Assembly: GCA_016748015.1 (NCBI GenBank) | Contig: JAAOMT010000372.1 | Location: 1 to 64,000, forward strand | DNA length: 64,000 nucleotides | Origin: Geosiphon pyriformis uo1 | Lineage: Eukaryota > Fungi > Glomeromycota | Direction: 5' to 3' | In this document: positions 11,606 through 58,060 of the stretch, in pieces | Layout of the letters: each line of letters starts with the position of its first letter | How positions within the stretch are numbered: the first letter of the stretch is position 1 | Made by a program: the position numbers and the translations under genes | Notes under the pieces: model-generated | The model's input: the letters and a program-made list of their open reading frames with translations, nothing else | Databases searched by the model: none | What the model was told of the DNA's origin: nothing

Positions 11606-14600
11606 TCAGTTCTGTGTGTTAAGAGCTATATTAACTGGAACTGTGAATCGTCCAGTTGAACCAAAACCTTGGGTTTCTTTATCGCTTTTTCCTAATTGTT
11701 CTCTTTGATTGACTAGTTGCAAACCTGAAATGTTGATTAAGGGTAGGCAAATAGCTTGGGCAATTTTTTCAGCATGTTCAATCTTGAATGGTTTGTCAGT
11801 TTCATTTTGAAGCATCACTGTTATGTCTCCAGTATATCTAGTATTGATTATTTCTCCTCTGACATTGATTTCTTTGCTTGCCAGAGAGGACCGAGAGGCA
11901 ATTTGAACCATTGCTCCTGGTGGGATTTCGAGTGCAATTTTGAGGTTGATTTTTGTGAGAGATTTGGGTTTGAGAACAAGAGTATCCTTGCCTGGATATC
12001 TTAGGTCATATCCAGCATCAATTTCGTGTGCTTTTTCAGGTTTTATTCCTTGTTCATTGTTGTTGAAGTATTTAAGTTGTAAAGCAGACTGATTTTCGAT
12101 AAGGTAGATGGGTGTTGTTTCAATTTCTTCTGTTTCTTCAGGTTTTCTAAATTCAATTTCATTCTCATCATTTTCGCTGGGCAAGGGGATACTAAGAGCA
12201 TAGCATTCGGGACACCATTGTTCATTGCAAGGCATAATGCATTCTTCACATAGCCTAATGTTCATTTGCTCTAATTGTTGAATTTGAGCTTCTTGGGTCA
12301 GGTAGGTGTGACTTGCAATTTGCTAATAGACTTCTACTTCATCTTCATAATCGAATCCAGCTAATTCCATAGTGTATTCAATGTATTCTGCTTCCTTCAT
12401 CTAATGAAAATCTTCTTTGGTAGCTCCATTAATTAATGCCATTGCTAAGTTAAAAATCATTTCGGCATCATGAGGGTAGTGATAAAGTTTGTTAAGAGCA
12501 CTGTTGTATGTTGCATTAAAGGGTGTTCCTCTTTTTACTTTTTCTGAAATTGATAAGACATATTGGCAGATCTGATTGCAGACACCTTCTCTCATTGCTA
12601 CATCAATCCAATTGCATTCTTCCGGTAGCATATCTCCACAAGTCAAACAAGCAGTGTTGTCCCATTTTTCGCTCCTTTTTATTAGATGGCCCCATTGCTC
12701 TCTGTGACAAGCCTTGCAGTAATAACAAGTATGATTTTCATATTCTTCTTCAGGTGAAATGCAGGCTCCCATTGACGATAGTTTCTTGTGGCAGTCCTTA
12801 CATTTAAGGGGAATATAGGGGCGTTGTTTTCTTGGTTCGGTTTTGAGTAAGGTATATTCCATCCAGAGGTTTCGGGTTTAGTGTGTGGGGTAAAATGTTC
12901 TTGTTCTGTTTCATCAGCCCAGTTGAACATTAATCCAAGAGCCATGAATGTTTCAATTATTGGTTTTTTTTCTTTTGGTTCAAATTCAAAAGCCGGGGCT
13001 TTTTCAGAGCATTTGTTGAATGTACCACAAATGGCAGATACCCGGGCGTGTTGTCCTTGGTAGGAGATTGTTAACTCTTGTGTTTCCCAATTCAGATTAG
13101 CATTGGCTTTTTGAAGCCAATCATTTCTGACGAGAGCTTGGTACTGGGGTGCGTCCATTACAAGAACTTTGACTGGAATGGTGATTCTATCAAGAGTGAA
13201 TGGAAAATTGTTAATTTCTCCTACTGGTGTCTTTTTCATGCTATCGGCAGTGACAATTACTGTTTGAGCTGGTCAGTCGACATTTCTTTTCAACTGTTGC
13301 ATTAACTGGTAGGTAATAATGCTTCCGGCGGATCCACTGTTTAGGATCAAGCGAATTGGCTTTCCTTCTACTTCAGCTTCTGCGTACATTGCAGTGATGG
13401 CTTTTTGCTTATTAGCCGCTGCATTGCTAAGCAAGAATGGTGATTCATTTGTTTCAAATTCAAAAGGAAAGATATCAGAGAGATTGGCGTTTTCAGCAAT
13501 TCGGGCTGGTGGAATAGTAGTGTGGTTATGAGAAGGGTTTCGTTGTTGNNNNNNNNNNNNNNNNNNNNNNNNNNNNNNNNNNNNNNNNNNNNNNNNNNNN
13601 NNNNNNNNNNNNNNNNNNNNNNNNNNNNNNNNNNNNNNNNNNNNNNNNNNNNNNNNNNNNNNNNNNNNNNNNNNNNNNNNNNNNNNNNNNNNNNNNNNNN
13701 NNNNNNNNNNNNNNNNNNNNNNNNNNNNNNNNNNNNNNNNNNNNNNNNNNNNNNNNNNNNNNNNNNNNNNNNNNNNNNNNNNNNNNNNNNNNNNNNNNNN
13801 NNNNNNNNNNNNNNNNNNNNNNNNNNNNNNNNNNNNNNNNNNNNNNNNNNNNNNNNNNNNNNNNNNNNNNNNNNNNNNNNNNNNNNNNNNNNACTGTGAA
13901 TAGTGTACTAAATTATTGTAAAGGTTGTTTCTAACTTCTGAGATATTATAATTTCCAAAAAGATAATTGTTGATGCGGTTTTCAATGTATTGGTATACTG
14001 ATTTCTTGACAACTTCAATTCCGTCTGGAATGTTGAATCTTTGCTTGCAGTGGGTATAAATTNNNNNNNNNNNNNNNNNNNNNNNNNNNNNNNNNNNNNN
14101 NNNNNNNNNNNNNNNNNNNNNNNNNNNNNNNNNNNNNNNNNNNNNNNNNNNNNNNNNNNNNNNNNNNNNNNNNNNNNNNNNNNNNNNNNNNNNNNNNNNN
14201 NNNNNNNNNNNNNNNNNNNNNNNNNNNNNNNNNNNNNNNNNNNNNNNNNNNNNNNNNNNNNNNNNNNNNNNNNNNNNNNNNNNNNNNNNNNNNNNNNNNN
14301 NNNNNNNNNNNNNNNNNNNNCTCCTGCTGTTCCTTTGAGAAAGTAGGGAATTGTTCTTAACATTCTGGCAGCATTCCATTCATTTGCATCTCCAGCTTTA
14401 GTAACTTGGTCAAGCCATTCTTGGGGACTGGTCTCAATATCTTCTCCATTGAATTCAGGGATTTTTGCGATGTATGTTGTCATTTCGTTTTCTTCATTTT
14501 CACTGTCTATTGATTCTTCTTCGGTTATTTCAGAGTTGTTTTCTTCGTTTGCTGCTGTCTTAGAGTGTTCACTTTGATTTTCAGCTAGAAAATCAAGGAG

Positions 14601-15215
14601 ATTGGAACTAGTTTGAAGGGGTTTTTGTTGTTTGGTAGAACTTCTGAGTGATGTAAAATCTTCTGGTCTTGCAAATCGATTCAAGGGTGAATTAGGTGTT
14701 TGTGCTTGTACAAGTAAAGCTGGAAAAGGTGTGATAGTAAGTGGAAGTTTTGAACTGGTTCCTTGTTCAGGTGTTTGTAAATGTTTGGCAGTTGTTTTCG
14801 GTAGTATTGGAGTATTTGGAGTGGTTTTTGAATATTGCTTTAATTTGTTTTTGTTTTTGTTACTTGTTTCTGTTTCCGATTCAAAATCAATGGTGTATTG
14901 AGACTGCACTGGATATGTTTCTTCACAGTATTTGATAATGTTAAAATTAAGTTTGTGAAAGTAAGTGGCAAGTATTTTACTATTAAGGTCTTCAGTTCCC
15001 AACTGTGAATAGTGTACTAAATTATTGTAAAGGTTGTTTCTAACTTCTGAGATATTATAATTTCCAAAAAGATAATTGTTGATGCGGTTTTCAATGTATT
15101 GGTATACTGATTTCTTGACAACTTCAATTCCGTCTGGAATGTTGAATCTTTGCTTGCAGTGGGTGTAAATTGATTGGTAATACTCTAGAGTTGTTGCGTC
15201 TGATGTGATCGCCAC
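11606..15215 (-). pseudogene. Element A gag-protease-Cys-rich-dUTPase ORF (GUG start at 15215)
   Basis: Capsid-like MTTYIAKIPEFNGED..PQEWL; protease LILNSGSAGS (D>N); CKDC/CKAC/CLTC/CEEC/CPEC; dUTPase motifs DAGYDL, ASRSS, IAQ, QGFGSTG. Confidence 0.9.
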
Positions 15216-15260: not shown

Positions 15261-16241
15261 TGTTACCAGAGGTTTTTGGTCTCTTTTCTGTAATGTTGTT
15301 GATACTTATTTGCTGTGAATTCACGTTTTCTGGATGTGATTGAACCTCCAGTAATTGAATTTATCTTCAAATTATCTCCTATAATTTGAACTTGCTGAGC
15401 TTATGAATGGAATGGCCAATTCCATGCCAGTTGCTTTATGTAGTTATATTGTAGTAAACGTCAACTCTTTCCCAGGAATTGCTCATCTGGAAGCTCACTA
15501 AAAAATGTGTAGTTACTTTGCTGTGAAAGTCAACTCTTCTACAGGAATCTTGTCTGTAGGCTATCCTAATGATTGTAATAAGAAAAGAAAGAAAAATAAA
15601 AGAAGTGTAAAAGAAATAGGATCTTATCAAGGGAAACATTTTCTATCCAGGCCTGGAGTCACTAACAGTTTACTGAAATTGGTAGCTAATCAATTTCGAA
15701 ATGATAGTTGGGTTTTGGGGATTTTCTAAGTACAATAATTAAAGAATTTGGTTTTTCAAATTATTTGATATTTATTTCTTTTTGTGTGTATAAGAACGGT
15801 TTTAAGAGATAAATCTAAAATAAGATACATTTTCTCGAAGAGAGAAGCTCTTCTTTTATACAACTTGTCGTAACACTATTCTATGAACTCGAACTTTGCT
15901 ATTTTCTACAATTTCGCTGAACTAAAGATACATTTCGGCAAACTATAAGTTATTTCGGCAAACTATTAGATATTTTGGTGAACTATCAATTATTTCGGCG
16001 AATTTCTACAAATTTCGGTGAACTTTTTGAATGTTACATAGTTCGGGGTATTGCATGATTGATCATTGCAATTAGGTTACATTGGTGTTGTGTACAATTT
16101 GAGTTATTAATTAAATGATAATTTCGGATATTTTTGCTAATATAATAAATGATCATTTAAAACGATAATATATGCTAATTAATGATAGGAATTATAAGAT
16201 AATTTCATGCTAAATAATATCTCTAATTTCATCTGGTAACA
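15261..16241 (-). repeat. 5' LTR of element A
   Basis: Direct repeat of 10517-11497, followed by the PBS. Confidence 0.95.
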
Positions 16242-18069: not shown

Positions 18070-18214
18070 AAACTATATTACTTCTTTCTTTTCTTTGTTC
18101 CAAATTCCTGAAAAAAAGTCAAAATTTTGAAAGAAGTTTTTCTGTTTTTTTTATATACTGTCTTCCATCATTTCACAAGAAACAAACCCTTTTATTGTCA
18201 GTCCAGCTGCCACT

Positions 18215-23000: not shown

Positions 23001-24747
23001 TCCATTGTAGTTTCCAGTCAAGCTGCATGTTAGTCCTGTGAACAATTTTTTAGCTGGTATGGTCAGAATTTTTTTGGATTGTGAACTGTCTTTGGCGAAC
23101 ATTCTGTCTAGTGCTTTTAGGAATCCTGGTGTTTTTCCTATGCCTGTAATTTTGGAAAAGTCCTTGTTTCTTAGTTGTGTTCATTCTCTGAAGTGTTTTG
23201 GGGTTGCCTTTGGTGACAGACTTCTTAACAAAAAAGGTGCTGTAATGGATTGGAAGACTTTTTGTCATTGGAAGAAACTTGATCCCAGAAGCCTTGTGCC
23301 TCATTGGTTTAATGTCATGCATAAGTTTTTGCTGGATAGGAGCTTGGCGCCACATGCTGCTGATGATACTGGTGATTCTTTGGGCTGTAGTGTTTTGGAC
23401 TCTGAACAGTTTGCTTTTGTGCAAAATGGTCTGCTTGAAGTTTGGTCTGACTTTTTGGATGTTTATATTGATGGTTCATTGAAATCAGCTGGCTCCTTCA
23501 ACATGATTAGTGAGACCACTGCTTATTTTCCTGCTTTAGATGCAGAAATTGGTGTTGGTGTATGTGGGCTTTTATCTTCGACTCTGTCGGAATTGCAGGC
23601 TGTGGCTCTTGCTCTGGAATGCATTCCTTCCTCATGTTCAGTGGTTTTGCATCTCGACAGCCAAGCTGCCATTGATGCATGTGTGTCTGAATTGGCTTTT
23701 GTTGTTCCTGACTTTCACAATCATTGTTGGATTGAGAGAAGACATGTTGCCAATTTGATTAAGGATAAAGATCTTGCTGTAAGTTGGGTTAAAGTCAAGG
23801 GTCATTCTGGAGTTCCTAGCAATGATTGAGCTGATGTGCTGGCTGGTGAAGCTGCTGGCTCTCCCATTTCTTTGCCGTCTGGAGTTCGTAAGTGTTTTCT
23901 GTTGGCTAAGGGTACTGCGGTTTCAGGTAATGCTTATTACTTTGTTAGAGATGTTTTTAGATCTGTTTGTCATGCTCATTGGGAGGCTGGTCTGGGTTAT
24001 AATGTGGTTTCAGCTATTCCATTGCAGCGTTTTGATTGGAACATTTCCACATGGGTCTGGCATCCTGACTTGCACATGCTTGCTAGATTTACCAGCCAGA
24101 AATCAGTGAGTCTTCACACATACTTGATGAAAGCTCTACATAGAAGATTGCCAGTGGCTGTTTGCAAAAGATTGTACAATAAATGTTATCCTGGTGTTCA
24201 GTGTTTGTTATGTGGTGAGGTGGAGTTGTCTGACCATGTTTTTACTTGTTCTCAAGATGTTTATGTGCAAGAAGATATTCTGTTAGAGGTATCTGCTTAT
24301 TGGATTTCCATGGCTGGTGCGTGTAACTCATCTTCTTCCTCTGTTTTGAAGACTCTTGATCTCTGCCGGTTGGACGTTGGCTTGTATTCAGTTTTGTGTA
24401 GAGGATTTGTGCTTAAGGATTGGTGTGCAGAGACTGTTGGCATTTTTGAGGATGTTAAGTGTGCTTCTGATGTGGTTGTTAACTTTGTGAGGTATTTGGT
24501 TGAATTACATTGATCTAAGGTGTGGTTGGCTAGGTTTAAATTTAGGGTGAACATAGAGAAGACAGGTTTGGTTGGTGATAATAGTTTGGTGTTAGAACTG
24601 TCGCATTGCATGACTTCTATGCTTTTGGATGGCATGATCAGATTGCTTGGCATTGTGGAGTCTTTTGCTGTAAGTTTTGGCTGTCGCAGGCCTTGTCTTT
24701 TTTTTTCTGGTTTGGATGGTAATCTGTGTGTTAGTTTAAGTGTATAG
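20056..24747 (+). pseudogene. LINE-2 ORF2: AP endonuclease - RT - RNase H - CCHC; several nonsense codons
   Basis: LGGDFNE, IDYI, DH (APE); KAAGLSGIPNEL, LNQDEVFSPLLW, AFVDDT (RT); VYIDGSL, ELQAVALAL, DSQAA, WVKVKGHSG (RNase H); CLLCGEVELSDHVFTC. Confidence 0.92.
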
Positions 24748-24893
24748 TGTTGTCTTATCTGGCCCGAGTGGCTAGCCACATGTAGAAAGTGTGTAAATTG
24801 CATTTAGTTTAAGCCACTTGGTTTGGTTCTATGTACTAGGTAGTGGTTGGGCTTTACTCATTAAATGAATAAAAAAAAAAAAAAACTATATTA

Positions 24894-27800
24894 TTATTCA
24901 ATTATAAACTTTTTTATATATTACAAATTAAGTTTATTAAAATTATAAAAATTTTTGTAATATTTAATTCTAATTTTATTTTTGTTATTGTTGTTTTTTG
25001 TGATATTTTTTTAAAAATTATTATAAAATTGTTAAAAATGTTTTTGGTAAATACTTTAATATTAAATTAAAGTTTATTAAACAATAATAATATAATATTA
25101 TTTATTTTAAGTTTTATATATTATTATTAAATAAAATTACAAATTTAGGAATTTTTATTTAATAATAATAATTTTATTTAATAATATTTATTTTAACTAT
25201 AAATAAATATATTTATAATATACAAAAAAAAAAGTCTTATTAAAAATTTTTTAAAGTAAAAAAACATCTTATTAATATTTATTTTTAAGTAAAAATTAAC
25301 TTAGTATTATATTTTAAGAAAAATAATCAAAATTTTACTTTTTTATTATTATTATGTTTTAATAAAGTGTGGCCAATTATTATTTAATACAATACACTAA
25401 ATTAAATGACCTAAATTAAATATAACTCATGTGTTTTTTACATGTAATTAATCATTTAAGTTAGTTAAAACACTAATTAAGATAAATTAAAAGAAGCTAA
25501 AAGTAAATTTTGTCTTTTAAGTTTCTTAATAACACTATTCAAATTTTTAGAATCAAAAATAAAATCACTAAAAAATAGCTTAGTTTTTTTAATATAACTT
25601 TTAACATTAAGATTACATATTTGTTACAAAGCAATTATACAGTATTATTCAATAAAAATTAACAAAAATCAAAAATAATAATATTATAATATATTAACTA
25701 ATTATTAAATTACAGTATAAATAACATAAATTAATAAATAAAATTACAGTATAAATAATATAAATTAATGAATAAAATTAGAAAATATAATATGTATACA
25801 ATAATATATAAAACATACACAAATATATCTAATTTAATATAATTATAAACAAATAAGCCAAAAAGTATTTATAATCAAATAAAAGTTCTAATAGCTTAAC
25901 AATTATTTACTAATTAATTAAAATAGGCACAATTATATATAACTCAAAATATGTATATATATAATAGTTTTCTAACTAGAAAAAAACAAACAAAAAAATA
26001 ATAATAAAAAACAAAAAAAAATTATTTAAATAAAATAAACAAAAAAGTGGAGAAATTAGATTATAATTTTAAAAAAAGTTAGAAAATATGTCTTTTAAGC
26101 TTTGCATTATAATATTTATTAATACTAAATTTAGTAGAATTAGAAATCTTCTTTCTTTATAATTTGGTTTCTTGTAAATAACTCAAAAGACCACTATCTT
26201 TTTTTATTATTATTTTTTTATTGATGAAAACAATAGTAGAAATATCTAATATACTAACAAAAATATAAACAAAATTAATAATATTAAAAACACATTAAAA
26301 AAATATTAATTACATAAAATTACTTATAATAATATCTTGGCCAAAATTAATAGTTAATTTAAAAATCTGAAATAAGCTCTTTATATCTTTGAAAAATAAT
26401 TTCTGATCAAGATTATTTAACAAATACTAATTTTGTTGAATTTTACTATTTATTTTTAATTTTTTTAAATTTATTAGAAATAGAATACTGTTTTACTATA
26501 AGTGAAAAAATACAAACATCTAATATTAGCACAAGATAAAAAAAGTATCTTTATAAGAGCTTTAAAAAAAAACACAATTGAAAGTATAGAAATACAACAA
26601 AAATTCTCTTTAGAAGACTAGTATAACAATAATTATCAACAGCAATTTTAATAAAAATATTATGTTATACATCAAATCTAATAACAAAGACACTTACCAG
26701 AAAAAATTATTTAATACCTGCTAGAAAATTAGAAAAAACTTATTTAGATTCTTAAATAAAAAAATAGTAGTAATTTATTAAATAAAAATTTAGTATAAAT
26801 TAAAATTAATGCTAATTAAGACTGATATACTTATTTTCATGTCAAAATTAAATAATTTTTTATATTATTATTTAATTTAAAAAGTTATAAAAATTAATTA
26901 TAGTATGGTCACTAAGAAAAATAATCTGTAATATTTGGTGTTTACTTCAAGATTCAATTTTAATCTATTCAAATTACTTAGATTTTAGCAATAATTAATT
27001 GTGTAAATTAGTAGATCAAAGTAGCAAAATTAATAACAATTACTAATTTTTTTAACCAAAACTTATATTACCAATTTTAAAAAAGATTGAAATTACTTTT
27101 TAATTGTCCTCTAGCTAAATCAATTTTTAACTACTAAATATATTATTGAATTCAATACTTATTTGAACAAAATTCAAAATTTAAGAACAAAAATGAAGCT
27201 TATTTTAAAAATTAATCCAATACATCATGCTATCCAACACATAATTATTTCCAATAACTTTAATACAAATATACTAAAAAATTAAGAAATATATTTGAGA
27301 AAATTTTTTACTTATCTTTAATAAAAACAAAAAAGACAGCAATAACTAAGATAATGAACAAAAACTAAAAACTTTAATACAAATATCTTATCAAAAAATT
27401 GTGAGTTAACAACAAATTCTAATTTTATTATATAAAAAATTTTGAATTATATTACCAGAAATCTTATCTTATTATCTGTTACTAAATAACAAAATTATAT
27501 ATATTATTAAGAATTATATCTTTATTTATTACAAAAACAATCTTTTGAATTTTTAATTATGTTTACATCTTATTCAATATTATTCATAGAAAAAAATACA
27601 AGAAAGAAGTAAGAAAAACAGATAGTAAAAATAAGCCAATAAAAAAATAATACTCAATAATAAGCACATTGTTAAAAAATCATAATATATTGTTTAAAAA
27701 TATGTAAAATCTTATATAATAAAAATTATGTATATATAGTAAGAGTGTTAAAAGCAGAAAAAACAGATTAGTTCAGAACAACAATACTTTTTCTTTTAAA

Positions 27801-28184: not shown

Positions 28185-28838
28185 TGTTACGGTTTAAGAA
28201 TTTAGCAAAAAAAATCATAAAAATAATACAAACTATTCAATCATAATATAGCACAGTAATAATCTTAGAAAGGTAATGATTAACATAGTAGCAAACACCA
28301 TCTCGTGATAGTGGCAAGCACCAGTTCACAATAGCAGCCAACACCAACTGGTGATAGCAGCAAACACCAGGTTGAAATANNNNNNNNNNNNNNNNNNNNN
28401 NNNNNNNNNNNNNNNNNNNNNNNNNNNNNNNNNNNNNNNNNNNNNNNNNNNNNNNNNNNNNNNNNNNNNNNNNNNNNNNNNNNNNNNNNNNNNNTTACTA
28501 ATTGATAAAAGCTTTATTGTGAGAATTAGAAAAGCGCTAAAGACCATTAACATTCTGTGTTTCTAGATTAGAGAAACACATCAGGCAATTGCAAGGATAG
28601 CCTCAGAGAAGACCCCAGACAGTGGGTAGATTTCAGTTCAGTCTCTGAGAAAGAGTACATAAACACATACAACAATCAAGAATTAAAGAATAACTTATAT
28701 TGCAACAGTAAAAAAAGAAAGCCTTCAGTGTAACAGTGACATTATCACACAAATAGAATTGAGGAACTCATGAAAGACTGATTGCAATTAAAGCGGAATA
28801 TCAGCAATTAAATATAACAAGAAAACCATCCCGTAACA
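28185..28838 (+). repeat. 5' LTR of element B (contains an undersized N gap)
   Basis: TGTTACGG...CCGTAACA; matches 36786-37614 on both sides of the gap. Confidence 0.93.
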
Positions 28839-28840
28839 TT

Positions 28841-28858
28841 TGTTGAACCCTACGAGGA
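28841..28858 (+). promoter_or_regulatory. Putative primer-binding site of element B (TGTTGAACCCTACGAGGA; TGT instead of TGG)
   Basis: PBS position, 2 nt after the LTR. With one change it would pair with a tRNA ending ...AGGGTTCACCA. Confidence 0.5.
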
Positions 28859-28920
28859 AAGAAAATCAAAAAGGAAATAATAATTAACAATAATTCATTG
28901 CTAAAAAGGAAAAGACAAAA

Positions 28921-31900
28921 GTGGCGACAAAAACCCCTAATCTTACTGTTTTTGAATTCTGCCGTGCTATTTACACACAAAATTAAAGTGATCTTGGATT
29001 ACCAGAAGGGTGTTGTCCAGCAGAATCTGCCCTCACTTATTATATCAATGCCAGAATAAATTATCATATAGGAAAGGAAGAAAAACCACACGACGCAAAA
29101 CTTGGATTGTATAGAGAATTATCACAATATACTACAAAAGAAGTAGCAGTAATAGCCACAACTATTGTCAAAATCCATCGAGAAATTGAGCAATACGCCA
29201 ACAAAAATTTTCCAATATCCACAGGAAACACTAGGGAACGCGCCAACAAAACCAAAGAAAATTTAGAAACTAATCAGGAAAGTAACCAGCAAAAACTAGA
29301 AACACCAGCTCAAACACCAAAGAAAACTGTCACTCAATCAATAAAGAAACAACGTATTTATTCACCAGAAGATAAATCATACCATTTTTCACCAGAAAAT
29401 AAGATACAAATTCCATTAGGAGCTGCATCATCATCAACATCAACTCCACAAACGCCAAAAACTCCTAGTTATATTGATAAAATTAAACAACGTAACTGGG
29501 GAGACATACCAATTACAGGAGGATATTCATCACTATTCCAAAACCCTCTTTTTCAGCCAAAATTTAGAACGGGGTTTGAAAACCGTGAAGAGGAGTCTGA
29601 ATCGGAATCTGAAAAAGAGACCAGTGAAAAAACAATCATAAGACCAGTCATTGGAACAAGCAGCCAGTCCAGAAACCAAGAAACTCGTGATCAAAAAGAA
29701 GAACCGGATATAAAGGAAGCCACCTTTAGAAACGCTCAAGGAAATATCATCCCACCTCCTCTTAGACCAATAAACCCACTAGCAGAAAACGGCAATGAAA
29801 TGACCACACCATACATTGTAAGACTAACAGATTTCTCAGGAGAGGAAGAAGAAACGGACGTGCACACATGGCTCAGAAAAGCACAAAAAGCCATCCAGAC
29901 AAATAACTGGAATGACCAAAGAGCAATTCAAATATTACTTTTCTTCCTGAAAGGCACAGCTGACTCATGGTATCAAAGTCTGGAAACAAAACCCACAAGC
30001 TTTGCCAAATTTAAAAATGCATTTCTGGAGTATTTTAGCGATCTAAATGCCGTAATCCAACTACAGAACGAATTCAATACTATCAAGCAAAATACCGGTG
30101 AAACTGTTACCCAATACCTTGCTCGATTCAATCGAATTTGCTGTCAGATTGAAGCGATTGAACAAGGATACTACACTGATCCTCAGGTTTTAAATCAGTT
30201 TATTAGAGGATTAAAAAGCAGCATTTTAGGAAGAGTACACCCTGCCCATCCTAATTCCTTACCAGAAGCTGTTATGCTCGCCAGAGCCCTTGAATCAGCT
30301 AAGAAAGAAGCTAACCATAGTTAAATGGTTAACATGGTAATAGAGGAAAATAAGACAGAAACATTAGAGAAAAGAGTAATGCGATTAGGGGAGGAACTCT
30401 TTAAGAAAATAGAAAGTTATCTTATCCCGGATCTGAGAAAAAATACATACCAACCACCCCAAAGATGCAGCCAGGAAGTCAGCGACAGTCAAAATAATCA
30501 CTCATCACGCCAGAAATTCAGAACAGAAACGCGCACCTGCCATTTTTGCAAATGCATAGGACATTTGATTAGTCAATGTCAAACATGAATGATGCAGAAA
30601 GCACGCAAAAATAATTACTACGCACCACCCCAAATGCCCAGAAACCAGTACATGCCAATACCATGCCAATATCCCACCACGTATCAAAATCAAGGAGCTT
30701 ACCAGCAACAGCCCATGATAGCCAACCCGAATTGGCATCCCGAGGCCTAAAATCAGCCCATGTAGAACCAGAATGCATTGGTCCAAAGGAATCCAAACTG
30801 CGCCGGAACCAATCAGCAAACCAATCCAAACTACCAAAATTATCAACAAACTTACCTTAATATACCGGAAAACCTGATCATCAGAAACAATGATGGTAGA
30901 AACATAAACAGAACCAAGAATTCCTCCAAATTGAGCCAGACAATACCACCAGCAGTTGCCACCGAAGATAGCAGCCTCACAGTTATTTTTCTTTTTGAAT
31001 TAGAGGAAAATAAGGCTATGTTTAGTGGAGCAGCATTGAACAAAAAACGCCCAATCACTACTATATATACGGAAGCCACTGTAAACAATACTCCAATCAA
31101 ACTTATTTTAGACAGCGGATCTGCTGGAAGCATCGTAACGCTTCAACTAGTAAACCAACTGGGTTTCAAAGTTGATCGTGCCACAACGTTCCAAATTATA
31201 ACAGCTGATGAAAGTACAAAGCTGCTTCATGGCAAAATTGACTCATTTCCTTTCGAAATTAACAGTATAGTAATACCTACAAAAGTATTAGTAATGAACG
31301 CTACACAATATCAAGCATTAGTAGGGAATGACTGGCTAACAAAAGCCAATGCCACTCTAGACTGGACCACCCAAGAGCTTCTGATCAATTATAATGGCCA
31401 CCAGGCCAAAATTTCAGCCACCTGTGGCCACTTCCAAAAACCCAGCACCAACCAAAGATCTACTTCGAATTTGAGGAAAATCCAGCACTACCAGCCATCA
31501 AAACCTATCAGCTCTCTTGGGCTGATGACCAAAGAACAAAACTACCAGCCGTACCAACGTGGACCAGCAAAGAAAGATCTGAATGGAACCAGATAAGTTC
31601 ACGAAGAAACCACCAGCGACGCAGACCAAAGCTAGAATGCTCGGTTTGCAAAAAAAAACTCTTGTCTATGACTGCGTGCAGTGCATCGGATGAAGACCCA
31701 AGAAACCCCATCCACTACTATTGTAACTGTTGTAACAAAAAAAAATACGGTTACCCAAAAAGACACGGAAAATGGAACGAAGAACCGTGCCTCACTTGTG
31801 GAGAACCATTACCAAGAGGGTGTGACTGGAATGACTTACCAGGCAGAGGAGAAACATGTGACGCAACTTGCCAATACACGATCCTCATCTGTGACTGGGT

Positions 31901-34622
31901 AAGAGGAGGAATGCCATTCAAAGCAGCATTCAACAGAGCATTAAAAAGACTACAGCACTACCCACATGATGAGGACAAGTTGTACAATACTGCACAAGCC
32001 AAAGTAAGAGAAGGAACCGCTAAAGAAATACAACATTGGAAAGAGTCAGCCAAAGTAGCTGACGAAGTCGCCAGCTACAACATGTTTGACCCAGTGGACA
32101 AATTTCAGGACTACTACCAACAACTATGTCCCACTCGACAAGAGCAAGAACAATACCTCGCCCAAATCAACACTTATCTCTATGAAAACTGTCTCATCCT
32201 GTGCCAAAATCAGTGCTGTGAAGAGTGTCAAGACAAAAGAGACTTAGAAAGAAAAATGGAAATTGAGAATCAGCAGTCTCAAAATCAATCAATAAATCAA
32301 CAAGACTCACCTGACGGTCCCGAGTCAGAAAAATTTGTAGCCTATACCAACCTAGAACAGGTGACTGACATCCGATACTTCAACAATGGGCACTTAGGAA
32401 TAATATCCAAAAGAGCCCATCCAACCAATGCCAGATTCAATCTATGTTATTTGGAAGACCAATCCACAACATTACCACCCAGGAGCATCACCAAAATTGA
32501 CCTAAAAATAGCGGTTGAAATTCTGCCAGGAATAATGGTTCAAATAGCATCACGATCAAGCCTTGTGAAAAAAGGAATAAGCGTTCAAGGAGGAGTAATT
32601 GACTCCAGATACACTGGAAATTTGATGGTTTTGCTACAGAACAATTCAGAAAAGCCTTATACCATTGAATCTAAGGAAAAGATTGCACAAGCAATTTTCC
32701 TACCATTGGTAAAAATTGGGAAATTTGTGCCAGTGGAAAATCATGAGGAATTGTCACAAACAATGAGAGGAACTTTTGGTTTTGGATCGACAGGAAAAGA
32801 AATTAAAGCAAATTTCGCTGAAACAATAGAGGAAAAAGGCGAAGTAATTAAAAATGAGTGGTCCATCACACTCCTACCATATGGAAAATCAGAAATAAAA
32901 AGGACAATTAAAGAAAAAGACCTAATATTTGAGCCCTACCCAGAAACTTGCCAACAGTTTCTCATAGAACTTACTAACCTTTTTATTCCAGCTGATAAAG
33001 CTCAATGGATAAAAATTCCTATCGCAAACACCACAGAAGAACCCATCTATATTCCGGAAGATACCATCATTAGATACCTCGGAACGGAGCTAGAAAACGC
33101 ATTAACACCACAAGAAATTCTAAATTTCCCAGAAATTGCCCTCTACTGTGAACTCACTTCAATAAATTGGCAACAACTATTAGAATGCTATCAATTTACG
33201 CCAGAAGAATTGGCCAAATTAAACATTGGAACAATGAATTCTGACCAATAGCGACAATTAAAAGCATTAATTTTAAAATACTCTGATATATTTTCAAGAA
33301 ATGGCGAATTTGGAAGAACCAACTTGGTTCAATACCAAATTCTCACTGGAGACGCCAGACCTGAAAAACAACATGCTTACCGTGTTCCACCAATGGAGCA
33401 TAATTTTATCAGAGAAGAAGTTCAAAGCATGTTGGAAAAAGGAATAATACAATCATCAATGAGCCCATGGTCCTCACCAGTTGTTTTAGTAAGGAAAAAG
33501 AATGGAAAAATTAGATTTTGCATCGACTATTGCAAACTAAACAGCAAAACAACCAAAGACTCATACCCAATACCATTAATTGACAAAATCTTCGACATTT
33601 TTGGAGGAGCAAAATAGTTTTCTATACTGGACTTGACCAGTGGGTATTGGCAAGTGGAAATGGACCCAAAGAACAGGCATAAAACAGCATTCACAACACA
33701 AAATAGCAATTATGAGTTCAATGTAATGCCATTTGGATTAACAAACACTCCCGCGACATTCCAAAGACTAATGAACGTAATTTACTCCGGAATTCTGTGG
33801 CAATCCGTTGTTGTCTACTTGGATGATACAAATGTTTTCTCGTCAAAATTCACGGATCATTTCCAACATTTACAACAAGTTTTTGAGAGATTGAGACACA
33901 CTGGACTTAAACTAAATCTAGAAAAATGTTTCTTTGGGAAAAATGAGCTAGCATTTTTAGGACACATAATTGGAAAAGATAGAATAAAACCAGATCCATC
34001 AAAAATAGACAAAGTGAAAAATTTTCCAGTACCTCAAAACATTTCAGAAGTTAAAAGCTTTTTAGGACTCACATCTTACTACTGCCGCTTTGTAGAAAAC
34101 TTTTCAAATATTGCCAAACCTCTTAATTACCTACTATCTAAAAATGTGAAGTTTGAATGGACTGAAGCACAACAAAAAGCTTTTGAGTACCTTAGACAAA
34201 AGCTCATTGAATCACCAATAATGATCTATCTGAATTTCAACAAGAAATTCAGTTTGGCCACAGATGCCTTTGGAACTGGACTTGGAGCCATTCTGTCACA
34301 AAAAGATAATAATAGAAGAGAATGTGTAATCGCTTATGCCAGCAGAAGTCTCAGTACGGCAGAACAAAACTACACAGCACATGAACTTGAATGCTTAGCA
34401 GTAGTCTGGAGTTGTGTTCACTTTGACACATATTTATGGTACCAACCCTTTGAGATTACGACAGATCATAGAGGTCTGGTCTGGTTAAATAACAAGAAAG
34501 TGCTAAAAAGAAAATACGCCAGATGGTCACAAACGTTAGCACCATATGATTATATTATCAAATACAAAGAAGGTACCAAAAATGTTAATGCCGACTGTTT
34601 GTCAAGAATAAGACACACATAA
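28921..34622 (+). pseudogene. Element B gag-pol (GUG-initiated extension, capsid, CCHC, protease, Cys-rich domain, dUTPase, RT, RNase H), with nonsense codons and one frameshift near 31460
   Basis: CHFCKCIGHLISQC; LILDSGS (31111); ASRSS, GGVIDSRYTG, IAQ, RGTFGFGSTG; SPWSSPVVLV, VYLDD (33816); LATDA, YASRSL, ELECLA, TDH, NADCLSR, then TAA. Confidence 0.93.
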
Positions 34623-34651
34623 AAATCACCAACCCACCCACCACAACAACA

Positions 34652-36031
34652 ATGAACAACCACCTTTACAAAAACCTCAGCCAATACTTGGAAACACTAC
34701 AAATAGACAAAGAAATGTCAGTAAAAGAGCTAATTAAGCTCCAAAAATTAGCAAAACACTATTTCATCCAAAATCACATACTTTATTACTGGAATCGACA
34801 AAATCCAGATAATCTATTAAGAGTTATAACCACAGATGAAAAAGAAACTATCTTATTTAACATGCACTCAGATATTCATTCAGGCCACTTTGGAAAAACA
34901 GCAACCATCCAACGTGCAACTAGCCGTTACTATTGGCCAAAAATGAGTTCAGACATAATCCAATACATAAGAAATTGTGACTCATGCCAACAAAGAGGAG
35001 GAGCAAAAACAATGGAATTATTAAGACCAATAAAAGTTGGACAGCCATTTGACAGAATCGGAATTGATTTAGTTGGACCCTTACCAATAACAACAAGAAA
35101 CAACTGTTATATTGCAGTAGTCATGGACTATCTCACCAAATGGCCAGAAGCTAGAACTATTAAAACAGCTGATGCTATTTCCATAGCTCAATTCGTACAT
35201 GAAGACTTAATTTACTAACATGGATGTCCACAAGAATTGCTATCAGATCAAGGCACACACTTCGTAAACAGCACCTTAAAAGAACTTAGCCAAAAATTTG
35301 GAATCAAGCGACCACTGTCATCACCATACCACCTTCAAACAAATAGATTAGTTGAAAGATTTAATCACACATTATGCAAATCACTGGCGAAAATTAGTAA
35401 CGAACATAAAAAAGAATGGGATTTGTTTATACCAGCAGTACTACTAGCATATAGAACAGTAAAACAAGATACTACACAATTCACACCGTTTGAACTAGTT
35501 TATGGAAGAAAAGCCACATTACCAGTTGAACTTACTATCCCAACTTATCCAAGTGACACTATCATGAAAGCAACATTCCAGGAAACACTACTTAGAAGAA
35601 CATACGAATTAATGGGAACTTTAGAAAACAAAAGAAGAAAAGCAGCACAAAATATTGAACAATCACAAGAACAACAAAAAGTGAGACATGATAACCAGTT
35701 ACCAGATAATATAATTAGCTACAAAATTGGAGATAAAGTATTGTTGCATCGTACAAAAATGGAAAAACAGTGGAATGGAAAATTTGATCACAAGTGGGAT
35801 GGACCATTTTATATTCACGAAATACTTGGAAATAGAGCATACAAGCTAAGACTAGATGATAAAATATTAAGAAAAGCAGCACATGGTAACCAGCTGAAAT
35901 TCCATTACAGTAAACCAGTAATAACAACAAAAACACCCAGAATTGGAACACAATTATCTTTAATTCTACCAGAACAAATTCCATGAGATTTAGAACCAAT
36001 AGTTTTAATTGAACATTATTTAAAAAGATAA
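34652..36031 (+). pseudogene. Element B integrase, stand-alone ORF (HHCC, DDE, GPF)
   Basis: Own ATG in a different frame from RT/RH. HSDIHSGH..CDSCQ, GIDLVGPLP, SDQGTHF, VERFN, WDGPF. Stops at 35216 and 35984 look like C>T decay. Confidence 0.92.
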
Positions 36032-36073
36032 TTAATCTTAGATCACAGCAAAAATGATTTAACAATCATAAAA

Positions 36074-36772
36074 ATGCATGCAAAAGATTCCAAAATTAAA
36101 ACAATAATACTTATTCCAGAAAACATCAACCATATAACTCAACAATTAGTTGAAAGCTTACAACAATTAAAATCTAATCTAGAAATCACAGTTAATAGCT
36201 CCAAAATAACATACATAAAAAGAACAATAGAAAATCCAAAAACAAGAAAAGAACATAATTTCGAACCATATAATATTGCCAAATATAACAACAAATTTAT
36301 TAGCAAAGTTATTGAAAAATTAGAGATAGCATTGGGCAATACATTAATAATAGAAGAAATAGAAATAAGTGAATTAACACCAAACACATTTAGCAACTTG
36401 AAAACGAAATTTCCAATTAATTACTGTTATTATCAACTAGGAAAGCACTTAAACATACAAACATTATACTCAAAAGACTCAACTAGAGTGTTTGACAAAA
36501 CAACTATCCAACTATTAGAACCTTTCATTGGAAAAACCAACACTACATTCCATTCAAAAACAGTTTAAAGAATTTTCAAAGCATTTGAAAACTGTCACAA
36601 ATTATTGTTGGACCCAACCATGAACATAATAACAACCAACAGTATTGGATGACTTACCAACTCGCAATTTCAAGAATTACAACAACAAATTAATAACACA
36701 GTATTGAACCACTATAGTAACTTAGAATTTAATGAAGAAATTAATTTCGATTTCAATGGAGCTCAATCTTGA
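36074..36772 (+). pseudogene. Element B 3' accessory ORF (unknown function, ~230 aa, ends ...DFNGAQS* at the PPT)
   Basis: ORF 36074-36568 continues past a TAA to ..FDFNGAQS TGA, overlapping the PPT. Homologous segments occur in C, D and F. Confidence 0.75.
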
Positions 36773-36785
36773 AAGGAGGGAATAA

Positions 36786-37614
36786 TGTTACGGTTTAAGA
36801 ATTTAGCAAAAAGAATCATAAAAATAATACAAACTATTCAATCATAATATAGCACAGTAATAATCTTAGAAAGGTAATGATTAACATAGTAGCAAACACC
36901 ATCTTGTGATAGTGGCAAGCACCAGTTCACAATAGCAGCCAACACCAACTGGTGATAGCAGCAAACACCAGGTTGAAATATCAAAAAGAAAGTATTTTCT
37001 CATAGAACTACAAACATGTATATATACAGTAGTTTTAATATTGGGAAAAAAAGAATCAAGTAATAAAAATCATAACTTATCAAATCATACTTTCAAATTA
37101 AATATCCCAAGAAACCTTTAAAATCAAAAAGAAATGAAAAAGAATATTTAAAACAAAACTATCACAACCCAAAATATTAAGAAACTTACTTGTATTATTT
37201 ATTGAATGAAACTATCATTCATCAACTGAATCCCTTGGAAAAATAATTCTTGATCAAGATTATTCATGTTGTTACTAATTGATAAAAGCTTTATTGTGAG
37301 AATTAGAAAAGCGCTAAAGACCATTAACATTCTGTGTTTCTAGATTAGAGAAACACATTAGACAATTGCAAGAATAGCCTCAGAGAAGACCCCAGACAGT
37401 AGGTAGATTTCAGTTCAGCCTCTGAGAAGGAGTACATAAACACATACAACAATCAAGAATTAAAGAATAACTTACATCACAACAGTAAAAAAGAAAGCCT
37501 TCAGTGTAACAGTGACATTATCACACAAATAGAATTGAGGAACTCACGAAAGACTAATTGCAATTAAAGCAGGATATCAGCAATTAAATATAACAAGAAA
37601 ACCATCCTGTAATA
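36786..37614 (+). repeat. 3' LTR of element B (829 bp)
   Basis: Direct repeat of the 5' LTR; end decayed to GTAATA. Confidence 0.95.
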
Positions 37615-39040
37615 CTGGCTACTATCCTAAAAAAAATTCATAAAAGAAAACCATTAATTAAATCTCTGTTTATTATACAAAAAACTCAACAAAAACTTTT
37701 AGACTTCAAAACCTTCAGAAAATACTATTATTTACAACTATTAAATACTAAGTTACAGATTTGTTATTTGTTTCAACACCTTAAATAATCACCTATAACA
37801 TTTGGTGCTCTTTGTAAGATATAATCTAACAAAAAACTAGCATTAACACCAATATTTGAAACAGTAGTAAAATTAAAAGTAATAGAGACAAATCATTTAG
37901 AATTCATAAAAACTTTATTTTAACATTATCAAACTTATCTTGGATTGACAAATAACTATTGATCAGCAGAATCAGCTTTCAATTTTTATATTAACAAAAA
38001 AATTACATTTTACTTGAAAAACCAAGAAAATTCAGAAGCCATCTTTAAGAATTTTTATAGCAAATTACTTTAAAATACCATATTTTTACAAAATTATTTG
38101 TTTACTTCACTAATCACAGAGATAAATTGGGAAATTAAAAATTATACTCAGCAGAAATTTCCTATTATCTTTGCAAAAAAAGATAAAAAAAAATTACAAA
38201 CTTCAACAAAAATACTAAAAAAAATACAACTGCTTACTTAGAAGAAATCAAAAGTTGTTTTATTTATTCATCTGTTATATCATTATATACCAGAAAGTAC
38301 TATTTACATATCATTCAAATTTGTATTATTATTAATTGTAAAAATACCATTATCCAGAGTACTGTTTCAAAATAATTAAGAAAAAACCAAACTATTAAAA
38401 ATCTACAGCAATTTTTTTAAAGAATTTAAATTGTGACCAACAACTTTATTAGAACTTTAATTATTACTACTTTAACCAAATTTCAGATTTACCAGTAACT
38501 GAACAGATACCAAATTAGAAAAAAAAAACAGCAATCAGAAAAATAATAATCAAAACTTGATTCCAAATAATTCAAAAATCATAACTTCAATTGTTTAAAC
38601 TCAACAAAACCCAAACAATCCAAACTTAGCTTCTATACTTCTACAAACTTACTGCTAGTTATTTCAATTAATTAACTGCCAGTTATTTCAATTAATTAAC
38701 TGTTAGTAGCACCAATTATCACTTAGAAATAACTATAACAATAACAATTATTACTTGTACTAATAGCATATATATTAATTGTTAAACTTGAAAAATTTAT
38801 TGGCAAAGAAGACAATGTTTAAGTATGATTAAACAATATAGCAAAAGCCATTACAGCCAATAGATAAGATGATGTCAGAGCATTTCAAGCCATCTTATAC
38901 TTTTTTTAAGATACTGTTAACTCATGATATTAAAGTCTAATTAACAAGCCATAAATTTTTAATGTATTTAAAACTGCATTTCTACAATATTTTAGCAATT
39001 ACCACAATATTAATTGGTTATTAACTAGCTTTATTACCAT

Positions 39041-40018: not shown

Positions 40019-40063
40019 TTTGGTGCTCTCCCATGGAAATAATACAGCAACAACAAATTCAAA

Positions 40064-43000
40064 GTGGTGACCACACCAGACACAGCAACTCTAGAGTATT
40101 ACCAGTTAATTTACACCCACTGCAAGCAAAGATTCAACATTCCAGACGGAATTGAAGTTGTCAAGAAATCAGTATACCAATACATTGAAAACCACATTAA
40201 CAATTATTTTTTTAGAAATTACAATATCTTAAAAGTTAGAAGCAACCTTTACAATAATTTAGTACACTATTTACAGTTGGGAACTGAAGACCTTAACAGT
40301 GAAACACTTGCCACTTACTTTCAAGAACTTAATTTTAATATTATCAAGTACTGTGAAGAAACATATCAGGTGCAGTCCCAATACTCTATTAATTTTGAAT
40401 CAGAGATAGAAACAAACAACAAAGGCAAACAAAAATTGAAGCAATACTCAAAAACCACCCCAAATACTCCAATACTACCAAAAACAACTGCCAAACACTT
40501 ACAAACACCTGAACAAAGAACCAGTTCAAAACTTCCACTTACTATCACATCTTTTCCAGCTTCACTTGCACAAATACAAATACCTAATTTACTCTTAAAT
40601 TGATTTGCAAGACCAAAAAATTTTACATTACCCAGAAGTCCCACCAAACAGCAAAAACCCCTTCAAACTAGTTCCAATCTCCTTGACTTTCTAGCTGAAA
40701 ATCAAAGTAAACACTCTGAGACAGCAGTGAATGAAGAAAATGACTCTGAAATATCTGAAAAAGAATCAATAGACAGTAAAAACGAAGAAAACAAAATAAT
40801 AGCATATATCACAAAAATCTCTGAATTTAATGGAAAAAACATTGAGACCAGTCCCCAAGAATGGCTCGACCAAGTTATTAAAGCTGGAGATGCAAATAGA
40901 TAGAATGCTGCCAAAATATTAAGAACAATTCTTTACTTTCTCAAAGGAACAGCAGGTGAATGGTTCAAAAACTTGACCACCCTTTTTTATGACTGGACAG
41001 CTTTCAAAACTGCCTTCTTTGAACAATTTACTGATAACAACATCTCAATCACACTTCGAAATCAGTTTTGCAATATCAAACAAGAACTCTCCAAATCTGT
41101 CATGACTTATATTGGGAAATTCAACAAACTTCTCAGATGAATTCGCCAACTTGAAACTAATAATTATTATTTCGATGCTCAAATCTTGGATCAATTTATT
41201 GCTGGTTGAAAGGATAAACTGATTAAAAAGATTCACTCACATGCTCTAAAAGATATAAACTCTGCCATTTAGCATGCAAAGAGATATAAAATGGCCATAA
41301 AAGAAGCCAATCATACAAAACTTGTAAACTTAGCCATTAGAAAAACCAGCTTAGCAGCTGAGAAAAAAATTGACCAACTCACAAAAAAAGTTGAAAACTA
41401 TTTTACCAACCAACAACAACAGCAACCCCAAAGATATCAACCACTCCAAAGACAAAATCAAAACAACTTTGCATCATCCTTTAATAACCAGCTTCAGAAT
41501 TGCCATTACTGTAGAATTCCTGGCCACTGGAAAAGAGATTGCAGAATGCTACAATGAGACCAACAAAACAGGAGTAATCAACATTACCTTTCGTCACAAC
41601 AATCTTATTACTAACCACCATTACCACCAGCTTACTATCCACCAAGACCACAATACCAAACCAACTACTATTAACCTGCTCCACAGCCAATGCAACAACA
41701 GTATTGACAACTCATTCAACATTACCAAGTACCTGCTCAAAGATTGGTTCAACAAAACCAATTTGCACCACAAAACTGATTTACAACAAACAACAACAGA
41801 ATCAACCCAAATAACCAATTAGTTCTCCAAAATCCAGTTCAGCCAAAACCCACCCATTATCATACTCAATCTAGCTATCTTACAATACCTAAAAAACAGG
41901 ATTTTCACTATACTGCACTCTCGGAAGGTAAAGCTATAGCATGACAACAAAACCCTTCTTATACTTCTACCACAATCCCACCAGCCAGAATTGCTGAAAA
42001 TGCCAACCTTTCAGATATATTTCCTTTTGAGTTCGAAGCAAATGAGTCACCATTCCTGCTTAGCAATGCAGCTGCCAACAAACAAAAAGCAATCACTGCT
42101 ATGTACACTGAAGCAGAAGTTGAAGGAAAGACAATTCACTTGATCCTAAACAGTGAATCCGCCAGAAGCATCATCACCTACCAGTTGATGCAACAGTTAA
42201 AGAGAAATGTTGACTGACCAGCTCAGACAGTAATCGTCACTGCCGATGGCATAAAAAAGACTCTAGTAGGAAAAATTGACAATTTTCCGTTCACTCTTGA
42301 TGGAATTACCATTCCAGTCAAAGTTCTTATAATGGATGTGCCCCAGTATCAAGCTCTTGTCAGAAATGATTGGCTCCAAAAAGCCAATGCAAAATTAGAC
42401 TGGGAAACCCAAAAATTACAACTCTCCTATCAAGAACAACATGCCTGAGTATCTGCTACTTGTGGTACATTTAACAAATGATCAGAAAAAGCCCCTGTCT
42501 TCAAATTTGAAGAGAAGGAAAAAAAGCCTGTAGTCAAAACATTTATGGCATTTAAATCAACATCTAACTGGGCTGAAAAAACTGAGCAAATGTATTTTGC
42601 AACAAACTCATATCCAAAGAAACCAGAAACCCCTAATTGGAACATCCCATATTCTAAACCAGAACCAAAGAAATGACACCCTTACATTCCACTCAAATGC
42701 AAGGACTGTCACAAGAAACTCTCCTCAATGGAAGCCTGCATCTTGCCAGAGGAAGAATATGGAAGTCATACTTGTTACTTTTACAATGCCTGCCATCGAG
42801 AATAATGGGGCCATTTAATTAAAAGAAGTGAAAAATGGGATGAAACACCCTGTCTTACTTGTGGAAAGCAGCTTCCTGATAAATGTAATTGAATTGACAT
42901 TGCCTTTAGAGGAGAAGTCTGTGATCAAACTTGCCAATATGCTCTTTCTATTGCAGAAAAGATAAAATATGGAACATCTTTCAATACTGCTTACAACAGC

Positions 43001-45510: not shown

Positions 45511-45556
45511 AATACAAAACCAACACCCATTTAAATTAACAACAAAACAACAAACA

Positions 45557-46942: not shown

Positions 46943-46999
46943 TTTAAATTTATTATTATAGTTATTCTCTTATAATTTAGAAACAATCTCACAAAAACA

Positions 47000-47740: not shown

Positions 47741-47751
47741 GAAAGAGGTTA

Positions 47752-56800: not shown

Positions 56801-58060
56801 ATTTGGGTCTTTGGAGTTGTTGATTTTCTCTGACAGCTTGGGCTAAGAGTTCTAGTAACTGGACAAGATTAACTGTGAGTTTATCTATTAACTGTTTATT
56901 TGGATCTTGAGTTTGGACAGCAAAAAAGGCAGCAGCCATTTGTGGAGCTGGAGCCATGGCAAAGACAAGAGCAAAAACTGGAAGTGTGAATCCCAAATGC
57001 ATTTTTTAGTTATCTTCAATTCTTTGTGCCAGTTCAATAGCCATGTTCATTGTTAGGTTGTCTTTTAAAACCAAGAGAGGCCAAAAAGCATATGATAGAT
57101 CAGTTTTTAATCTTTTTGTAAAGGAATGTATCTTTTGCTCTTCAGTCCAGTTTTTCCCAAAGTCTACACATTTGATTAGCTTTCTAATAGCTTTGACATA
57201 TTCAGTTACTACTTTTCTAGGGCCTTGGGTTCTTCTTTCCAATTCCATATGTCATTTGGATATTAATATTGGAGTTCTGAACTTGGTCTCAAACCAGATA
57301 GTAAAAGAGATATTTTCTTCTTTAGCATTGGTTGGTGTCCATCTGATTATTCAGTATTAAGCATTGGTATTTGTTTTTTGTGAGAACCAGATAGCAAAAG
57401 AGTTTTGAAGATAGCCACCAATGATTTGGAACTTGTATTCTTTATCATACTGGTTGGCAGTGACAGCTCTCTTAAAATCATCCAACCATTCAATTGAATC
57501 TTGTGCATTATCTCTAAATAATGATAGTAGAGTATTGTTTCTTCTTTCTAGAGCAGTTTGTATACTTTGGAGAGTGGCCAGAATGTTTGCTTGCATGGAG
57601 TTATTAGCCATTGGTTCAGGGGTAACTGTTTGTGTAGATGAATCTGATTTACTTGATAAAAAGTCAAAAACAGGGGCAGTTTGGTAGCTTTCTTCTTCTG
57701 TTTCAAAGGGAGTTTCAATTGCTTGATGAACAGCAATCCAAATGTGGATTTGATGATTCAGATATTCGGAATCAGGGGGCTGTTGTTCAAAGATTGTGGA
57801 GTATAAAAGTTAATTGATGCTGTTGTTTCTTTTTTCAAAGTAATAAGTTATATAGACTGTATAGATTTCAGCTGAATGCTTATTCAAAAACCAGTTCCAA
57901 AAATCTTGGAATTGTTTATTGAATTAATCTTCAATAGGAAAGCAAATTAAGCAGGAAGACAAAAGATTGAGTTTAATAAAGTCTAGATTGTTTTTGTTAT
58001 GTGCTTTAAAGTATTCTTCTGATTGTTATAACAGATATGAATAATTACCCATACAATAGG
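53864..58060 (-). pseudogene. Element D gag-pol (N-terminal extension, capsid, CCHC, protease, short Cys module, RT, RNase H)
   Basis: MANNSMQ..IEWLDDF, CYYCGLTGHFFRDC, LILNSGSS, IVGNEWL, DLTAGFWQV, VYLDD, YASRSL. Start approximate. Confidence 0.88.

Follow-up and report, generated by a model that had tools for sequence, protein, structure and literature searches.

A candidate ancestral GUG start and an AUG-depleted N-terminal extension of Gag in LTR retrotransposons of Geosiphon pyriformis

Introduction

Gag of Ty3/gypsy elements is usually taken to start at the capsid and to have no domain in the matrix position. A longer form of Gag is known from MLV, whose glyco-Gag (gPr80gag) carries an in-frame extension initiated at a near-cognate codon in good context. 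The start codon is CUG, in some strains also GUG, the region of the extension is generally free of AUG, and reading of the extension amounts to 6.7% of gag (PMC5778647). No report of non-AUG initiation of Gag was found for LTR retrotransposons, as judged from open-access literature listings.

The Geosiphonaceae have undergone a striking LTR expansion (PMC11952901). The window analysed here is a 64-kb stretch of Geosiphon pyriformis DNA, for which the initial annotation proposed dual initiation of Gag resembling that of MLV. As in glyco-Gag, the Gag frame of several elements in the window appears to be extended upstream to a near-cognate codon, GUG, in good context. This paper describes a computational analysis of the extension, of its start codon and of the distribution of AUG around them.

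Results

LTR elements of the window

The window proved to be a nested stack of LTR elements, designated by the single letters A to E (X is the family that contains E). Element A extends from 16241 to 10517 on the minus strand and B from 28185 to 37612 on the plus strand. Element E starts at about 37800 and is split by the insertion of C (39041-48729), which belongs to the same family as A, and D lies on the minus strand at 58752-51166. The LTR termini are TGTTA...TAACA, and A, B and C are flanked by 4-bp target-site duplications (16245-16242/10516-10513, 28181-28184/37615-37618 and 39037-39040/48730-48733, respectively). The duplicated sequences CCGA, CTGG and CCAT are each a CG-centred word or the transition product of one. 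The LTR pairs of these three elements are 94-99% identical and differ by transitions only; the direction of decay between copies is C>T and G>A. The 5' LTR of B, which contains a 115-N gap, is located at 28185..28838 (plus strand) and its 3' partner at 36786-37612. The 5' LTR of A (15261..16241, minus strand) has a TATA-like sequence at 15860, AATAAA at 15776 and an ATG at 15425. By eye, the U5 regions of B (28599-28650) and A (15565-15515, minus strand) have in common the stretch GGATAGCC-t/c-AGA, followed by a possible hairpin; the two LTRs are otherwise unlike.

The order of Pfam domains in B is capsid (PF19259, PF03732), protease, dUTPase, RT, RNase H and integrase, dUTPase thus preceding RT, and CCHC also forms part of the Gag-Pol order of the elements. 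By domain order and Pfam matches the elements are assigned to the Ty3/gypsy LTR retrotransposons. In B (34620-34655) and C (45507-45560) a stop codon follows RNase H, and a new ATG in a different frame serves integrase. Two further decayed elements (4600-9900 and 18100-25000), distinct from A to E, contain plus-strand RT and RNase H, are about 65% alike and are probably LINE-like.

All 99 named homologues of B Gag were Geosiphon pyriformis gene models, and so were, throughout, the homologues listed for A (the best 120 of 213) and D (the best 120 of 130); among these named matches there was no relative from outside Geosiphon. One of the A homologues shares 130 identical residues with A. A profile of the N-terminal domain described below gave 195 matches, and all ten that were looked up among the best 150 of them came from Geosiphon. 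Metagenome scans for relatives gave no match. A viral locus (L001) considered as a relative was discarded as a chance match to a GC-rich, phage-like gene.

Conservation of the N-terminal extension

In B, the capsid is preceded by a domain of about 105 amino acids with four predicted helices (28921..29235, plus strand) and by a linker (29236..29799, plus strand) that is predicted to be disordered, is rich in S/T/P and in charged residues and has K-K-x-R before the motif SYH[FY][ST]P. The extension of A (14484..15215, minus strand) consists of 244 codons from GTG, with neither a stop codon nor Met. In C, of the same family, it lies at 40064..40798 (plus strand, from GTG), and in E, a decayed member of family X, at 37864..38765 (plus strand). 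The length across families is about 240-295 codons. The B copy has an in-frame TAA at 28984-28986, which the initial annotation did not mention; all the aligned depth has C at 28984. A 170-nt piece of the A extension (13893-14062 versus 15002-15171) is repeated at 99% between two N gaps, which is likely a scaffolding artefact.

The extension had been described as conserved between families, and the comparisons bore this out, with X as an added third family. When A and B were compared as protein, the Gag frame scored 95, whereas the eight other frame pairs scored 20-35 and the maximum of 2000 shuffles was 55. The score of B versus E was 90, and that of A versus E was 68, a value reached by 1 of 2000 shuffles. 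The number of stop codons per frame (Gag frame first) was 0/7/25 in A, 1/13/25 in B and 1/11/26 in C. Identity between A and B by codon position was 0.40/0.62/0.27, in a protein-guided alignment that favours positions 1 and 2; 15 of 25 identical residues are encoded by different codons. For the decayed pair A and C, identity was flat over the codon positions. By these sequence comparisons, the extension is under protein-level constraint in the Gag frame.

These results bear on a reading in which the extension is untranslated, a long AUG-free 5' leader for scanning whose open frame is a relic. The purge of AUG reported below would by itself fit a leader, and the N-terminal domain has no match to a known family. 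However, protein conservation across families is confined to a single frame with third positions saturated, there are 0-1 stops in the Gag frame versus 7-26 in the others, the predicted fold is confident, and homology starts exactly at a GTG in good context. We regard an untranslated leader as very improbable.

The first 100 residues were modelled as four helices (pLDDT 85, pTM 0.77), the first of which starts at model residue 6. In a full-length model of low confidence, residues 105-276 were unstructured and the capsid helices followed after the Met. Searches of Pfam, PDB, viral folds and the Atlas gave no match to the N-terminal domain, which is not to say that the fold is new. The best hit of the fold search (Z 7.5) was a designed protein, Foldseek returned nothing at E<=0.001, and retroviral MA was not among the matches listed for the four-helix model; a fold search with the low-confidence full-length model gave no match. 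An N-terminal Gly for myristoylation is typical of MA, although not universal. At position 2 all three families have Ala, or Val or Thr as products of its decay, and no MA-type N-terminal Gly. No hydrophobic signal or anchor segment was found in the A or B extension (maximal 19-residue hydropathy 0.73-0.76). The motif K-[KR]-x-[KR] is present a little N-terminal to SYH[FY][ST]P in 23/38 sequences of family B and 16/21 of family X; as a candidate nuclear signal, it resembles the monopartite consensus.

The start of the long Gag frame

In agreement with the initial annotation, the long ORF opens at AAA GTG G(C/T)G in B (28921..28923, plus strand, with the sequence AAA GTG GCG), A (15215, minus strand) and C (40064, plus strand), and the decayed E has ACA GTA GTA at 37864 (plus strand). 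The context of the GUG is A-rich, with A(-3) and G(+4); no strong hairpin was found 3' of the GTG in A or C. The protein homology of the three families, which are about 20-30% identical, starts at (K/T)-V-A, i.e. at the Val itself. Family X, found with the profile of the N-terminal domain, opens with (K/T)-V-A-E-S-E.

By alignment, position 1 was Val in 40 of the 45 covering B models (99 examined) and in 73 of the 74 covering A models (120 examined). Motif counts, which drew on all available protein models of each family, gave V:M ratios of 63:7 (of 75) in family A, 45:2 (of 51) in family B and 35:7 (of 43) in family X; these numbers, like those from the alignments, refer to gene models rather than genomic DNA, and the share of Met is inflated because gene callers prefer ATG copies. 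In family X, six of the seven Met are model starts, and the adjacent Ala has changed to Thr in 8/43. Against a consensus ATG at the start position, Val was the majority residue in the models of A, B and X. Per-column change rates were 12-15% for E>K and 1-2% for V>I, with a median of 0 for A>G-type changes. Since A>G-type change is near zero, Val cannot derive from Met, and GTG is, on the evidence of the gene models, the ancestral state at position 1. The earlier argument that the local bias makes ATG and not GTG is in line with these numbers.

The GTG might also be read as part of a 3' splice site, AAAG/TG, at which an LTR exon ending in A would create A/UG as the start of the long Gag, in an RNA without the primer-binding site (PBS). 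An A precedes the GTG in all four copies, the gene model P0100, which matches the A copy of the window, acquires its Met by an A/TG join, and E has CAG/TA with 30% U and TAAC-like motifs upstream. However, the sites in A, B and C end in AAG with 5-15% U in the preceding 20 nt, whereas contig-supported antisense introns of Geosiphon end in YAG in 8/9 cases, with 30-65% U. Moreover, B has additional AGs just upstream, no common GT[AG]xG donor after A was found in the LTRs, and the predicted upstream exons vary between models. We give a splice junction at this place only a slim chance.

An in-frame TAA is indeed present a few codons upstream of the GTG, as had been noted, but in A and C it is likely a decay product. 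This TAA, eight codons before the GTG, corresponds to Gln in 18/18 models that read through, a count showing only that CAA copies are common, because models cannot hold a stop. Of the in-frame stops, the nearest that the four A/C LTRs have in common lie 36 and 53 codons before the GTG. The family A frame is thus open for 35 codons above the GTG, and no stop there bars another near-cognate start.

The putative PBS of B, placed by position and the TGG motif, is at 28839..28857 (plus strand), directly after the LTR end TAACA; the GTG of B is 82 nt beyond this position. The possibility that the GTG motif is itself the PBS was ruled out, as TTTGGTG immediately follows the LTR end, 45-82 nt ahead of the GTG. 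A look-alike in D, AAAAGTGGTG, occupies the PBS position and is out of frame.

The presumed start of sense transcription was placed from TATA-like boxes alone. A uORF of 17 codons opens at an ATG that lies 210 nt before the GTG in each of the two A LTRs; C has AAG there. Twenty-two models begin at this ATG and three show another residue. In 3/4 A/C LTRs an ATG is located 30 nt past the TATA-like box. Three ATGs follow the TATA box in the B 3' LTR, one of which can be compared with another copy and is ACG in the end of a contig from run X2. Two ATGs in the B leader have no comparable second copy.

Depletion of AUG and the capsid AUG

ATG had been reported to be nearly absent from the extension in all frames. 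The expected numbers were obtained from dinucleotide shuffles, and all four copies fell below expectation: 1 versus 7.4 expected in A (P=0.001), 2 versus 10.4 in B (0/1000 shuffles), 2 versus 7.5 in C (P=0.007) and 0 versus 7.5 in E (0/500 shuffles). There was no such depletion in the control segments, the B capsid (6 versus 7.9), B RT (22 versus 19.4) and A U3 (9 versus 7.8). The extensions constitute the three longest ATG-free runs of the plus strand and the longest of the minus strand of the window. The sense strand of A is free of ATG down to 14498, as claimed, with the upper limit at 15424 (928 nt) and not at 15420 (~920 nt); the count of two ATGs in B between 28921 and 29799 was correct.

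The few residual ATGs were said to be ACG in other copies, and where copies are comparable this is mostly so. The ATG at 28771 shows T>C in most of the depth of run X1 and that at 29049 in half of it, and at LTR columns 605, 759 and 784 ATG in one copy stands against ACG elsewhere.

The routes by which AUG was avoided were compared between extensions and downstream ORFs; C, a near copy of A, was omitted. The extensions of A, B and D taken together contain no in-frame Met in 681 codons, versus 46/2559 in the downstream ORFs (P=3e-5). The ratio of xAT to xAC codons before G was 3:9 in the extensions versus 72:18 downstream (P=2.5e-4), and A preceded TG in 0/11 versus 32/89 cases. The latter two routes are silent at the protein level and opposite to the CpG decay, which creates ATG. 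Protein-silent loss of AUG against the direction of decay points to ribosomes scanning through the extension, and the purge of out-of-frame AUGs would be consistent with their passing through.

The first in-frame ATG is, as described earlier, at the capsid domain. In B it opens the Ty3-type capsid domain (29800..30321, plus strand) with MTTPY and in A (14481..14483, minus strand) it begins MTTYI; the decayed copies C (40796, plus strand) and E (38763, plus strand) have ATA at this place, E with I-A-Y for M-A-Y. The capsid Met is present in 56/67 B models and 57/74 A models, 11 further A models having Met one codon earlier, and the capsid of family X opens with M-A-Y-A-P. Position 11 of Pfam Ty3_capsid aligns five residues past the capsid Met. 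In Ty3 Gag3, CA comprises residues 1-207 and there is no MA (PMC6525542). Initiation at this AUG would therefore yield a full Ty3-type Gag.

Two other readings of this arrangement were weighed. GUG could be the sole functional start, with the long Gag a precursor cut by the protease near the capsid Met, the AUG product a by-product and AUGs purged only against short out-of-frame ORFs that trigger mRNA decay. The N-terminal domain is conserved and, in the model, folded like a standing part of Gag; avoidance of decay likewise predicts a purge of out-of-frame AUGs, and some genes, e.g. DAP5, start at GUG only (PMC5666671). However, in-frame Met is absent too (0/681 codons), up to a Met at the capsid boundary that is kept in three families, and for any leaky ribosome the capsid AUG is the first AUG. 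Non-AUG starts are also markedly less efficient than AUG (PMC5666671). A sole GUG start is in our opinion unlikely.

Alternatively, there could be two transcripts as in Ty1, in which case the genomic RNA would give the long Gag from GUG, and an internal RNA (like Ty1i/p22) or an internal entry site would give the capsid-start protein, perhaps a self-restricting factor. In Ty1, the truncated Gag p22 is translated from an internal RNA that has AUGs of its own (PMC5408680), and it would fit that the strong, conserved AUG coincides with a domain boundary. However, an internal start does not need the clearance of AUG across the extension and most of the leader, and the short form would retain the entire capsid like Ty3 Gag3 (PMC6525542), whereas p22 is the C-terminal half of Gag. 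The probability of two transcripts appears low, about the same as that of the splice junction.

Family D

A Met-poor frame upstream in D had also been noted initially. It does not support non-AUG initiation: the frame opens with a normal ATG at 58052, with Met in 75/77 covering models, by which D is excluded as a non-AUG case. Its extension (57609..58052, minus strand) has 147 codons, the AUG at 58052 in weak context and a second AUG at 57611 at the capsid, and it includes 438 nt that are free of AUG in all frames (0 versus 6.7 expected). The D extension did not match the A/B/X profile and is non-homologous. This arrangement of the extension is at most suggestive of a parallel, leaky-AUG version of a two-start design, as the D LTR carries shared ATGs. 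The 5' LTR of D (58359, minus strand) has the sequence GAGCACCA, complementary to the start of the PBS, TGGTGCT (58098, minus strand). As GAGCACCA is missing from the two other D-type LTRs, its complementarity is possibly due to chance.

Antisense RNA of family B

One contig each in runs X2 and X3 (two studies; the kind of run is presumed) skips nine segments of B. After shifting of the cuts within ambiguous letters these read as GT...AG on the minus strand, i.e. as nine introns of 81-201 nt in a minus-strand spliced RNA covering 28850-31839 and 37275-37475. Relative to B, nearly all changes in the expressed copy are A>G/T>C, and this copy is therefore little decayed. The contigs indicate spliced antisense RNA from a little-decayed copy of family B. 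None of six joints checked was found in run X1 (thousands of contigs), in which further joints were incompletely counted. One of the antisense introns covers the region from the PBS to the GUG. Read on the letters of B, the antisense RNA contains no long ORF, the longest starting with Met being 93 aa. Cover of X2 and X3 is zero in some intron bins, which says nothing about sense expression.

The X3 contig leads on from the LTR across the polypurine tract; at 34968-36735 it leaves out 1766 nt of integrase, with an 8-nt ambiguity at the joint. The same skip is present in one X1 contig and is therefore likely a DNA deletion; a tandem element, or LTRs collapsed in the assembly graph, may also be involved.

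Discussion

From the sequence data we consider it probable that one RNA directs the synthesis of a minor, GUG-started long Gag and a major, AUG-started Gag of the Ty3 type. A minority of the scanning ribosomes would start at the GUG and make the long Gag, consisting of the helical domain, the disordered linker, CA-NC and onward. The majority would scan on for ~730-880 nt and start at the capsid AUG, and their product, with the architecture of Ty3 Gag3, would build the particle. The lower yield of the GUG form is assumed by analogy, the ratio being borrowed from other systems; initiation at non-AUG codons is markedly weaker than at AUG (PMC5666671). More speculatively, the long Gag may be incorporated in small numbers, its additional domain lying on the exterior of the shell, because the N-terminus of Ty3 CA points outward (PMC6525542). 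The ancestral GUG, the constrained extension and the second start by leaky scanning, all proposed initially, find support here, with a third family and the out-of-frame AUG test as additions.

As for function, it can tentatively be suggested that the clade fixed the GUG start to set the share of capsid subunits carrying a helical domain in the matrix position on a long tether. The long Gag, as the minor form, might decorate the exterior of the particle and direct it in the cell, e.g. to the nucleus through the K-K-x-R common to B and X, and family D, whose extension is unrelated and whose first AUG is weak, might have arrived at a comparable scheme with two starts. We hold this to be possible but rather doubtful.

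Three families at 20-30% identity retain a non-AUG start that would add a whole predicted folded domain belonging to no known family. ATG-based annotation misses the extension, and gene callers spliced in varying upstream exons. If the proposal is true, a glyco-Gag-style translation scheme operates in a multi-copy fungal retrotransposon, and a purge of AUG in all frames 5' of the capsid could be used as a signature for hidden Gag isoforms elsewhere.

The likeness to glyco-Gag put forward in the initial annotation holds for the translation scheme. It does not extend to a signal or anchor segment or to size: the MLV extension has 88 residues and a signal peptide to the ER (PMC3042739), whereas the Geosiphon extensions, about three times as long with 240-295 residues, have no such segment and comprise a predicted soluble helical domain and a disordered linker, in a fungal element in which no envelope gene was seen. 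PEG10 likewise makes a Gag-like protein from an upstream CUG and a downstream AUG, but it is a domesticated mammalian gene with 34 extra residues, and its CUG form is the major one (PMC2800197); the Geosiphon elements form multi-copy families of transposons whose extension includes an entire additional domain. Ty1 p22/p18 are, as proposed here for the capsid-start form, shorter Gag isoforms from an internal AUG; unlike the latter they are made from a separate internal RNA and contain only the C-terminal half of Gag, and for full-length Ty1 Gag no non-AUG start is described in the accessible text of the same source (PMC5408680). In RTBV (Caulimoviridae) about 10% of initiation occurs at AUU, after which 900 AUG-free nt are scanned to AUGs (PMC5902531). 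There, separate ORFs I-III are translated after a ribosome shunt, whereas the Geosiphon elements would produce nested isoforms from one continuous frame. With Ty3 and the Metaviridae these elements have in common the LTRs, the order capsid-CCHC-protease-RT-RNase H-integrase and an AUG form matching Gag3 (PMC6525542). They differ from Ty3 in the dUTPase, in the integrase behind a stop codon and in the putatively GUG-started domain and linker, which take the place of the retroviral MA.
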